Of a stretch of 32,000 nt of DNA, positions 13,883 to 15,540 are shown one piece after another (within the stretch, counting starts at the first letter, position 1; each line of letters starts with the position of its first letter). The stretch lies in NCBI RefSeq assembly GCF_000186885.1, contig NC_014972.1, positions 2,370,001 to 2,402,000 on the forward strand, given 5' to 3'. Source of the DNA: Desulfobulbus propionicus DSM 2032 (lineage in GTDB: Bacteria; Desulfobacterota; Desulfobulbia; Desulfobulbales; Desulfobulbaceae). Made by a program: the position numbers and the translations under genes. The notes beneath the pieces were generated by a model. It had not been told where the DNA came from. It did no database searches and was given only the letters and a program-made list of their open reading frames with translations.

Positions 13883-14275
13883 ATGGTACGTGTAATAACT
13901 TTTGGAACTTTTGATGTTTTCCATATTGGACATCTCAGTATACTAGATCGTTCAAGGAAACTTGGAGATTTTTTAATTGTTGGAGTTTCAACTGACCAAA
14001 TGAGTTTCGATAAAAAAAATCGTTATCCAATATATTCACAACATGAACGTTTACAAATTATTCAATCACTACGTTGTGTTGATGAAGTTTTTTTCGAAGA
14101 ATCACTTGATTTAAAACGTAATTATCTTTTAGAATATAAAGCAGATATTCTTGTCATGGGAGACGATTGGGCTGGAAAATTCGACAAATTTAATGATATT
14201 GTCAGGGTAATATATCTTCCAAGAACCCCTTCAATTTCAACTACAGAAGTTATTGAGAAAATACGTATAATATAA
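13883..14275 (+). CDS. tagD: Glycerol-3-phosphate cytidylyltransferase (makes CDP-glycerol)
   Basis: 130 aa. [38 protein letters not shown] contains the cytidylyltransferase HxGH signature. The size, the ..GDDW.GKFD.. motif and the RTP.ISTT motif match TagD/TarD. Confidence 0.88.
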
Positions 14276-14295
14276 CCATATTAATAATACATCTG

Positions 14296-15540
14296 ATGTT
14301 AAAAAAACTTAAATTGACATGTAAAAAAATTTCTAGCTCATTTTTTGGATGGATCATCCTTTGGCCATTTTCTTATATCATCCAACGAGACCAAAAAAAA
14401 TATGTAATTATCGGTCGAGACGGCGGTAAATTTCTCGATAACAGCAAATATTGCTTTATTGGTCTTCAATATTTTCAATCACTACACAATATCAACGTAG
14501 TTTTCTTAACCGACTACCCTGATGTTCGAGCTGAACTGGAAACACATGGATATCAAGTTGCTCGTTTATCCGGTCCCGTTGGCTGGTGGCAATTTCTCCG
14601 CTGTGGAACAATCATAATGGACAGCGCAGAATGGGGGTCTTTTGGCCGCTTTGCAGCTGCACGAGGGGCTCGTTTGGTTCAGCTCTGGCATGGAATTCCC
14701 CTCAAGCAGATAGAATTATTAATTATACAAAAAATTGCTTCAACTTTACCGTTCAACTTAAGTAGAGCATTTTACGCCTATCGTAATTTTATTGGCCGAC
14801 ATCGACAAGTGGACCTCTTGGTTTCCACCTCAGCTCATGTCACTAACAAGGCTATGAAATTCTGTTTCAATGCAAAACATTGGCCAGCTATAGGGTATCC
14901 TCGCAATGATGTATTGCTTGATGAACAGTTGCGTCATCATCCCCTCGTATCACTTGGCATGGATGACCAAGCAATATGTGCTATTCGATCCGCCAAATAT
15001 TCAGGGAAAAATGTAATTTTATACACACCAACTTTTCGAAGAAATATGCATGACCCTTTTTCCGATGGAGTAATTAACTTAGATCAACTTTATAATTTTT
15101 TAAAGTTGCATAACCTCTTTTTTTTGATCAAACTTCACCCGTTGATGCCACAAACCATTGAGCCATCTTATTGGAAAGATAATATTTTTTTTATTCGCCC
15201 TGATTCAGATATCTACCCATTAATGCATGAAATCAATATACTTATCACAGACTATTCATCAATTTTCTTTGATTATCTTTTATTGGATAGACCTATTGTT
15301 TTTTACTGCCACGACCTAAACGAATACATACAAGATGATCGAGGTTTTATATTTGATTACGAGACGATGACCCCTGGCCCAAAAGTTCACTCCCAAAAAG
15401 ATTTAGAAAATCAAATTATCGGTATACTACAAAGGAAAGATATCTGGACCGATGATCGTAGAAGAGTACGTGATCTTGTATTTGACCATATAGACGGTTC
15501 AGCAACAAAACGTCTGATGGCAGTGCTTATTGGTAAATAA
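14296..15540 (+). CDS. CDP-glycerol glycerophosphotransferase family protein (TagB/TagF-like)
   Basis: 414 aa. The C-terminal catalytic region LIKLHPLM....[44 protein letters not shown] matches the Glyphos_transf pattern (H..., DYSS..FD, P.I.f..D...Y...RG). It lies directly downstream of tagD. Confidence 0.8.

Follow-up and report, generated by a model that had tools for sequence, protein, structure and literature searches.

What is a pair of teichoic-acid-type enzymes doing beside the pilin gene of a Gram-negative bacterium, and which surface molecule would receive the glycerol-phosphate that they are predicted to transfer? The question is raised by a 32-kb stretch of the genome of Desulfobulbus propionicus DSM 2032 (contig NC_014972.1, positions 2,370,001 to 2,402,000; hereafter, the window), in which a tagD-type gene for a glycerol-3-phosphate cytidylyltransferase is followed by a gene for a TagF-like cytidine diphosphate (CDP)-glycerol glycerophosphotransferase. 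The pair lies in an island that starts at pilA, the gene for the major type IV pilin, and continues with nine further genes over about 11.4 kb (Table 1). A first-pass annotation, made from the letters of this DNA, had proposed that the island makes a glycan containing glycerol-phosphate and that the locus is linked to the pilin. Judging from their sequences, the two enzymes very probably make and use CDP-glycerol. The case for the complete pathway, in which a CDP-glycerol cassette inserted in a pilin-anchored glycosylation island would place glycerol-phosphate on a pilin glycan, is evenly balanced. The window is the portion of the genome that was analyzed, and the absences of genes reported below hold within it.

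Table 1. Features of the pilin-anchored island and of the genes upstream of it (coordinates in the window)
Feature	Position	Strand	Details
Minor pilins	1647-3425	-	
pilR	3659-5101	-	
pilS	5147-6691	-	Divergent from pilA
Sigma-54-type -24/-12 promoter-like element, TGGCACggctaGTGC	6885..6899	+	Upstream of pilA, beside divergent pilS/pilR
Major type IV pilin, PilA	6913..7410	+	PF07963, E=2.7e-10; NCBIfam pilin models
TfpW-like GT-C membrane glycosyltransferase with C-terminal TPR	7422..9572	+	716 aa from TTG; homologue P0121 starts at ATG 7470, 700 aa
Terminator-like 12-bp perfect hairpin and U-run	7439..7470	+	Directly 3' of pilA; ends at ATG of next gene
VKOR-DsbA fusion, membrane disulfide-forming oxidoreductase	9569..10744	+	PF07884, E=1.6e-25; PF13462/PF01323
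Second GT-C, PMT_2 or ArnT-PMT type	10741..12480	+	PF13231, 37.7 bits vs cut-off of 26.1
Wzx-type (Polysacc_synt) flippase for lipid-linked oligosaccharide	12498..13832	+	PF01943, E=1.1e-20
tagD-type glycerol-3-phosphate cytidylyltransferase	13883..14275	+	130 aa; predicted to make CDP-glycerol
Single-domain TagF/TagB-family CDP-glycerol glycerophosphotransferase	14296..15540	+	414 aa
Glycosyltransferase GT4a	15611..16606	+	PF13692/PF00534; co-directional with tagF
Glycosyltransferase GT4b	16603..17868	-	PF00534, E=3e-38; convergent with GT4a; second gene of GT2-GT4b pair
GtrB/DPM1/AglJ-like GT2 with two C-terminal transmembrane helices	17852..18862	-	PF00535, E=9e-32; putative polyprenyl-phosphate sugar synthase (lipid-linked donor or initiating enzyme)

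The predicted CDP-glycerol cassette

Both open reading frames (ORFs) stand where the first-pass annotation had put them, with the peptides that it quoted, and its assignments hold for both enzymes. The TagD protein matches PF01467 (E=2.5e-25), and its top NCBIfam model is TIGR01518 (glycerol-3-phosphate cytidylyltransferase), which leads the next model, rfaE domain II, by 48 bits. Its closest solved relative is Bacillus subtilis TagD (1coz; E=2.5e-35, residues 1-127 aligned), to which it is ~48% identical as counted from the alignment, and in this alignment the HxGH motif is kept as FHIGH (H14, H17) and RTxxISTT as RTPSISTT. The TagF-like protein matches PF04464 over residues 32-410 (E=1.3e-61; 209.1 bits vs a gathering score of 22.1), with Staphylococcus epidermidis TagF (3l7i; E=1e-19) as its closest solved relative. 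Both catalytic histidines of TagF are aligned: H444 corresponds to H132 of the query, in WHGIPLK, and H584 to the histidine of KLHPL; the entry for the H444N mutant, 3l7j, differs at precisely the H444 column. The family matches of both proteins are far beyond chance.

Scored against the equivalog models for TarF, TarL, and TarB, the TagF-like protein obtains 103.8, 85.3, and 34.5 bits and reaches none of the cut-offs (550, 1000, and 500 bits, respectively). It is no equivalog of these three enzymes, and sequence alone gives no verdict on primase versus polymerase activity or on glycerol versus ribitol. Among solved structures, its nearest relatives are two polymerases, TagF and TarL, and two capsule polymerases, Bcs3 and Cps3D. 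A tagD-type gene adjoins the TagF-like gene in nine of the 10 other loci that were examined (the remaining one, L136 in our numbering, lacks tagD), and window TagD is 64-80% identical to the products of TagF-paired tagD genes in eight loci. Given the enzyme assignments and this pairing, it is reasonable to expect, as had been proposed, that the island glycan carries glycerol-phosphate. The assumption of a Gram-negative (diderm) host was also right, whereas the remark that a few Gram-negative capsules have the pair is too narrow: the TagF-like protein has 3227 homologues at E<=1e-10, and among the best 120 every named one comes from a diderm lineage.

The two genes lie in the AT-richest part of the island (23-44% G+C), which as a whole, at 6.6-19.2 kb, has 41-55% G+C vs 60-66% in the background. 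The G+C content of tagD is 30.3%, falling to 13.7% at third codon positions (GC3), and that of tagF is 37.5%; 200-nt windows give 23-28% over 13601-14400 and 32-44% over 14401-15600. The 20-30% G+C reported earlier for the cassette is accurate for tagD and for the 3' end of wzx and too low for much of tagF, while the 62% reported for the flanks describes the genome background and not the immediate flanks, which are part of the island. The wzx gene is itself mosaic, with 46-52% G+C in its first two-thirds and 23-33%, like tagD, in its last ~430 bp; the break near 13400 could mark an intragenic site of recombination. With 52-54% G+C vs 30-37% in the window, the nearest tagD/tagF pairs are not the direct source of the cassette. 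Among the relatives compared, no low-GC donor was identified, and no donor lineage could be named. The window contains 0 tRNAs and 0 Rfam matches that might mark an island border with a tRNA or noncoding RNA, and a search for direct or inverted repeats or insertion sequence remnants flanking the AT-rich segment returned chance-level short repeats only.

The pilin-anchored module

Seven genes follow pilA on the plus strand with intergenic gaps of -4 to 70 bp, coding for the TfpW-like GT-C/TPR protein, VKOR-DsbA, the PMT_2-type GT-C, Wzx, TagD, TagF, and GT4a; the convergent genes for GT4b and the GtrB-like GT2 complete the island. The probable start of pilA is the ATG at 6980, giving a mature N terminus of FTLIELMIV..., and the pilin has exactly two cysteines and a phenylalanine at +32. 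The GT-C/TPR gene begins 12-60 bp past the end of pilA. Its product is a multipass membrane protein with Pfam TPR matches, whose first loop has a DD motif (D36 D37) that is invariant across 20 homologues. The AlphaFold2 model has a pLDDT of 85. Full-length searches (profile vs PDB, Foldseek) were dominated by TPR proteins, and the N-terminal 444 residues were re-modelled alone; with these, Foldseek against PDB gave Pmt4, STT3, and AglB as top matches (probability ~1, TM 0.45-0.50, marginal E of 0.008-0.13), which supports a GT-C fold for the modelled domain. A permissive Pfam scan of the same domain returned only an insignificant TMEM260-like match (E=2.9). Enzymes of the PMT_2 or ArnT-PMT type use polyprenyl-phosphate-sugar donors; the island member is 61-62% identical in two other Desulfobulbus genomes, and a phmmer search of PDB with it returned zero matches.

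A metagenome scan with a profile of the GT-C/TPR family yielded 80 loci, 61 of them with >600 bp upstream and 17 with at least 6 kb downstream. A pilin gene stands directly upstream on the same strand in 41 of the 61, and downstream VKOR-DsbA is found in 12 of the 17 and a PMT_2 homologue in 13. The order pilA/GT-C/VKOR-DsbA/PMT_2 is also seen in an uncultured Desulfobulbus genome and in D. rhabdoformis. By the evidence of gene order, these four constitute a widely conserved module. Taken together, the comparisons suggest that pilA, GT-C/TPR, VKOR-DsbA, and PMT_2 form a larger unit, hitherto undescribed, that is common in the sulfate-reducing Desulfobulbales, a lineage that also includes the cable bacteria. 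The description of the locus as pilin-linked is borne out by pilA on the same strand, by the TfpW-like GT-C in first place, by the recurring module order, and by TagF relatives encoded between pilA and pilBCD.

Several further observations concern the module itself. The VKOR-DsbA gene follows the pilin/GT-C pair in the window (9569-10744) and also in L011, L051, L056, L058, L065, L073, and others; its conserved position and the two-cysteine pilin make it look like a dedicated pilin disulfide former in strict anaerobes. The TfpW-like GT-C occurs in two paralogous copies, in tandem or one gene apart, in L058 (4298-6433), L136 (2534-6976), and L137 (432-4330). A same-species contig, L005, is 97% identical to the window up to mid-pilA and, over the stretch from PMT_2 to GT2, 99.7% identical. 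Between these points (2266-6506 of L005 vs 7181-10801 of the window), the C-terminal half of the pilin differs, and genes for VKOR-DsbA (404 aa), a PMT protein (578 aa), and Polbeta/HepT replace those for GT-C/TPR and VKOR-DsbA. Such a replacement between near-identical flanks indicates that the pilin allele and the neighboring accessory genes are exchanged together, as in the pilin groups of Pseudomonas aeruginosa. A Polbeta (MNT)/HepT toxin-antitoxin pair lies inside or at the edge of three pilin-glycan islands: L005 (5688-6489), L051 (13254-14055), and L136 (1-691). The nearest homologues of PilS, GT-C, and other products are from Desulfobulbus and Desulfobulbaceae, the best PilS relative (53% identical) being from an uncultured Desulfobulbus. 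The sigma-54-like element before pilA has one mismatch to TGGCAC-N5-TTGC; the count of this motif across the window is not above chance, and therefore only the position of the element is suggestive.

The cassette in other loci and the acceptor of its product

Counting the window, 11 contexts of TagF-like genes were examined: six are linked to a pilus locus (the window, L134, L136, L137, L138, and D. rhabdoformis), four lack a pilin, and one lies on a contig too short for a verdict. In a neighbor-joining tree, those with a pilus link are spread across the TagF clade. In L134, a metagenome-assembled genome of the Gammaproteobacteria, the order is pilin-pilin-GT-C (645 aa)-GT2-tagD-wzx-tagF-GT4-GT4-pilB-pilC-pilD-coaE. 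The seven island gene types, whose products from GT-C to the second GT4 are 32, 47, 71, 26, 41, 41, and 36% identical to those of the window (in the order GT-C, GT2, TagD, Wzx, TagF, GT4, GT4), thereby all lie between pilA and pilBCD. The islands of L137 and L138 are akin to it and likewise end at pilBCD, and L136 combines two pilins and two GT-C homologues with a PglK/MsbA-like ABC protein and a TagF-like gene. In D. rhabdoformis, tagD-tagF-GT4 converge on GT4-GT2 just before the gene for an iron-containing alcohol dehydrogenase (Fe-ADH), as they do in the window, where Fe-ADH is 93% identical. Because the same gene set stands beside pilin genes in unrelated bacteria, the glycerol-phosphate probably goes on a pilus-linked glycan.

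The glycosyltransferases around the cassette recur in part with it. GT4a is 65% identical in D. rhabdoformis and 41% in L134, and in both it is likewise placed after tagF. Homologues of GT4b were found in six loci, among them L134, L138, and L081, and GT2 is 47-82% identical in L134, L137, L138, and two further loci; its best NCBIfam models are AglJ, PpgS, PgfS, and ArnC, with every score below cut-off.

The enzyme families, the catalytic motifs, the gene order, the missing polymerase, ligase, and exporter genes, and the recurrence beside pilins in two phyla are read directly from the sequences compared. Beyond these, we infer a CDP-glycerol donor, a lipid-linked acceptor, a single rather than polymeric addition, and the pilin as final acceptor. 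In the pathway that we favor, TagD would convert CTP and sn-glycerol-3-phosphate to CDP-glycerol, and at the cytoplasmic face of the inner membrane the TagF-like enzyme would transfer one or a few glycerol-phosphate units from it to a short polyprenyl-linked oligosaccharide, begun by the GtrB/AglJ-like GT2 and extended by both island GT4s. The completed lipid-linked unit would be flipped by Wzx, and in the periplasm the TfpW-like GT-C/TPR protein, the PMT_2 protein, or both would transfer it to a serine or threonine of the major pilin, giving an anionic, teichoic-acid-like pilus decoration. The presence of Wzx together with the absence of an ABC exporter and a polymerase points to a glycan of unit size and against a poly(glycerol-phosphate) chain. 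The glycerol-phosphate would most likely be added to a glycan built on a lipid carrier in the cytoplasm, not directly to a pilin serine as in Neisseria.

The best-surviving alternative keeps this chemistry and changes the acceptor. The island would then be a surface-polysaccharide cluster (O-unit or lipooligosaccharide, O-polysaccharide, or exopolysaccharide [EPS]) in a variable hot spot between pilA and Fe-ADH, and enzymes encoded elsewhere would join its unit to lipid A-core or export it, leaving the pilin unaffected or a secondary target, as with TfpO in P. aeruginosa. We regard this as quite possible, if on balance doubtful, and the points that weigh against the favored pathway are given here along with it. 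In D. rhabdoformis, tagD/tagF stand at the end of a ~25-kb cluster that lies in the interval from pilA to Fe-ADH and also encodes Wzm/Wzt(Wzt_C), epimerases, methyltransferases, and numerous glycosyltransferases. About 20 kb of this Wzm/Wzt(Wzt_C) cluster, of a kind typical of O-polysaccharides, separate the PMT gene from the tagD/tagF block, which is >20 kb away from pilA. With 52-56% identity, the nearest TagF relatives belong to polysaccharide clusters in which no pilin lies closer than 10 kb, and a Methylotuvimicrobium homologue is likewise in a polysaccharide cluster without a pilin. A low and mosaic G+C content is typical of O-antigen loci. Nearly all pilin/GT-C-anchored loci lack the pair: among the 80 GT-C-anchored metagenomic loci, none has tagD and one has a TagF-family gene, and the cassette is therefore an optional add-on outside the conserved module. 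The hairpin 3' of pilA is a strong one (folding free energy, -18.4 kcal/mol; z=-4.45; 0 of 200 shuffles fold as well), so that co-transcription of pilA with the genes that follow is not assured and read-through would be attenuated. GT4 enzymes that elongate a GtrB-type polyprenyl-monophosphate sugar, as the favored pathway requires, are well known in archaea (the AglJ pathway) and unusual in bacteria. TagD, at 122.1 bits, does not reach the TIGR01518 equivalog cut-off of 165.4 and is therefore filed as TagD-type rather than as a certified equivalog. Finally, the true initiating enzyme could, like an O-oligosaccharyltransferase or WaaL, have its gene elsewhere in the genome.

Other evidence stands against such a polysaccharide cluster and for the pilin. 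The window, island included, lacks Wzy, WaaL, Wzz or another chain-length regulator, an initiating phosphoglycosyl transferase, and a polymer exporter, and no island ORF matches PF04932, PF02397, PF00953, or PF02706-type proteins. The full gene set recurs between pilA and pilBCD in gammaproteobacterial-type loci, a position that is hard to reconcile with a general lipopolysaccharide (LPS) or EPS locus, and GT2 and GT4b, which flank the cassette, are also found in some pilin-anchored loci. Were the glycan to go to LPS instead, the island would be an ordinary surface polysaccharide cluster containing glycerol-phosphate. Of the components of a Wzx/Wzy-dependent O-antigen or capsule cluster, the window has only Wzx (PF01943); the other genes could lie outside it.

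It is improbable, in our judgment, that the TagF-like enzyme is instead the polymerase of a poly(glycerol-phosphate) or poly(glycosyl-glycerol-phosphate) polymer or capsule of the teichoic acid type. The enzyme's membership in PF04464, its nearest solved relatives (TagF, TarL, Bcs3, and Cps3D), and Gram-negative precedent (PMC5974469, PMC8262930) speak for this role, but it is a single-domain protein of 414 aa vs multidomain enzymes of >1000 aa, its scores lie far under the TarF, TarL, and TarB cut-offs, and the sole translocase of the window, Wzx, handles short units. Neither a TagGH or KpsMT exporter nor other kps genes nor TagO/TagA/LCP genes were found among the proteins of the window. Two specific candidates of this kind were rejected: a wall teichoic acid pathway, as the window has no genes for TagO/TagA initiation, TagGH export, or LCP ligation, and a TagF-like group 2 capsule polymerase, given the single 414-aa domain and the missing kps genes.

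Least probable of all, and very unlikely, is a different substrate or target, i.e., transfer of another CDP-activated alcohol or phosphonate or direct addition of phosphoglycerol to a pilin residue of the kind reported for the pilins of Neisseria and for Tyr32 of Geobacter PilA. We know of no enzyme assigned to the latter modification. The shortfall of TagD against TIGR01518, a related pilin locus that pairs a PF04464 enzyme with a cytidylyltransferase-phosphoenolpyruvate (PEP)-mutase fusion typical of phosphonate chemistry, and the glycerophosphate proposed on Tyr32 of G. sulfurreducens PilA (PMC6201914) favor it; yet the best family and the best solved relative of TagD are both glycerol-3-phosphate cytidylyltransferases, at ~48% identity for the B. 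subtilis enzyme, the window has no TarI/TarJ or PEP-mutase genes, and TagF-family enzymes work on lipid-linked or polymer acceptors in the cytoplasm, whereas sites of pilin modification are periplasmic. A Geobacter-like modification was rejected on the pilin sequence, which has phenylalanine at +32 (compare PMC5174107).

The related pilin locus just mentioned is metagenomic L081 (10173-17751), a pilin/GT-C/VKOR locus in which the PF04464 gene is accompanied by genes for a polysialyltransferase-like protein, a PglK/MsbA-like ABC protein, Fe-ADH, a phosphonopyruvate-decarboxylase-like thiamine pyrophosphate enzyme, and the cytidylyltransferase-PEP-mutase fusion. Together these genes make up a phosphonate module of the CMP-activated type, in its chemistry analogous to tagD/tagF, and they suggest a phosphonate-decorated pilin-linked glycan. 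A broader reading, which we advance tentatively and somewhat short of evenly poised, is that pilin O-glycosylation islands shared across phyla (Desulfobulbales and Gammaproteobacteria) use a TfpW-like GT-C to pass a polyprenyl-linked oligosaccharide, built in the cytoplasm, to the major pilin, and that a variable part adds anionic groups of the teichoic acid type, either sn-glycerol-phosphate (tagD and the TagF-like gene) or phosphonate (the cytidylyltransferase-PEP-mutase fusion and PF04464). If this is true, the window is the first cultivable case in which a protein glycan of a type IV pilus depends on CDP-glycerol and TagF.

Known systems and the surrounding genes

As a whole, the locus is closest to the TfpW system, with different donor chemistry. 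TfpW of P. aeruginosa group IV is a GT-C encoded downstream of pilA, with DDX in periplasmic loop 1, YX6PFX7P in loop 4, and a C-terminal TPR; its donor is a polyprenyl-phosphate-linked sugar made in the cytoplasm and flipped, and a D-arabinofuranose homo-oligomer is produced via DprE1/DprE2-type genes (bioRxiv 10.1101/2020.04.19.049825). The window GT-C is likened to TfpW by architecture: it comes right after pilA, has DD in loop 1, and carries a C-terminal TPR. Of the proline motif, Y285-X6-P292 is present and the remainder absent. No DprE-type genes were found in the window, and its glycan would therefore differ from the TfpW arabinan; the island differs further in having the GtrB-like GT2, two GT4s, Wzx, and tagD/tagF. 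Systems built of GtrB, a flippase, and a GT-C (Gtr, ArnC/ArnT, CsbB/YfhO, and streptococcal PgfS/PgfM) likewise unite a GT2 with C-terminal transmembrane helices and a PMT_2-type GT-C in one locus. Compared with these three-component systems, the island GT2 scores below family cut-offs, and the addition of GT4s, Wzx, and a CDP-glycerol cassette suggests an oligosaccharide rather than a single sugar.

With the wall teichoic acid pathways of B. subtilis, S. epidermidis, and S. aureus, the island shares the same two families and their catalytic motifs, with CDP-glycerol coming from a small HxGH cytidylyltransferase and being used by a PF04464 enzyme whose acceptor is lipid-linked and lies on the cytoplasmic side of the membrane. 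It differs from them in its diderm host, its Wzx translocase, its pilin-locus context, and a likely product that is a decoration and not a polymer. The TagF-like capsule polymerases of Gram-negative pathogens (Cps3D, Bcs3, and others; PMC5974469, PMC8262930, PMC10299916) have in common with the window protein the PF04464 domain, a CDP-activated polyol, and a Gram-negative setting, and are its sequence relatives at E-values of 1e-10 to 1e-12. However, they are multidomain proteins of >1000 aa encoded in ABC-transporter-dependent group 2 loci, whereas the window protein has 414 aa and is encoded beside Wzx.

On Neisseria pilin, phosphoglycerol is placed directly on a pilin residue, in the periplasm, by PptB, which is a PptA/EptA-like transferase. 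The first-pass annotation took PptB for a different type of enzyme, in agreement with the literature, and no island protein matches the sulfatase/EptA-type family, to which such a periplasmic transferase would belong, in Pfam or NCBIfam. On Geobacter PilA, glycerophosphate has been proposed at Tyr32 (PMC6201914; PMC5174107). In D. propionicus the outcome would match these two cases in that a type IV pilus would bear a negatively charged glycerol-phosphate. By contrast, Neisseria and Geobacter modify the protein directly and are not known to use CDP-glycerol, whereas the route proposed here would run through CDP-glycerol in the cytoplasm and end on a glycan.

The cassette itself is ordinary; as far as we searched, its recurrent placement in pilin-anchored glycosylation islands of two phyla is undescribed. 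The papers found link pilins with CDP-glycerol or TagF-type enzymes at most incidentally, none was found on pilin glycosylation in Desulfobulbus, and no open paper was found that describes tagD/tagF-type genes in O-antigen clusters. Such genes do occur in O-antigen clusters. Modifications of type IV pilins alter the charge, bundling, surface attachment, phage susceptibility, and antigenicity of the pilus. The known routes to them are the transfer of O-antigen units via TfpO/PglL, of arabinan via TfpW, and of direct phospho-forms via PptA/PptB. If the favored pathway is right, teichoic-acid-type chemistry joins these routes, and a Gram-positive-style anionic wall chemistry has been reused on a Gram-negative protein filament. 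The recurrence of the cassette beside pilins leads to a simple, testable prediction, a phosphodiester-linked unit of 154 Da on pilin glycopeptides, and with a cultured Desulfobulbus host this can be tested directly.

Beyond the island, the window returns to background G+C and to housekeeping genes. A perfect copy of the sigma-54 -24/-12 consensus, TGGCAC-N5-TTGC, lies at 19199-19213, ~95 bp upstream of the Fe-ADH gene (19308-20489), and several metagenomic contigs of the window species stop near 19242. From 19308 to 31449, a tungsten/molybdopterin-related run codes for Fe-ADH, an aldehyde:ferredoxin oxidoreductase, two MoeA-like proteins, a ThiF/MoeB-like protein, and a periplasmic-binding/permease/ATPase set that resembles tungstate transporters. 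This part is rich in G+C, and its very long antisense ORFs (e.g., 20876-23008, minus strand) look like artefacts of composition.

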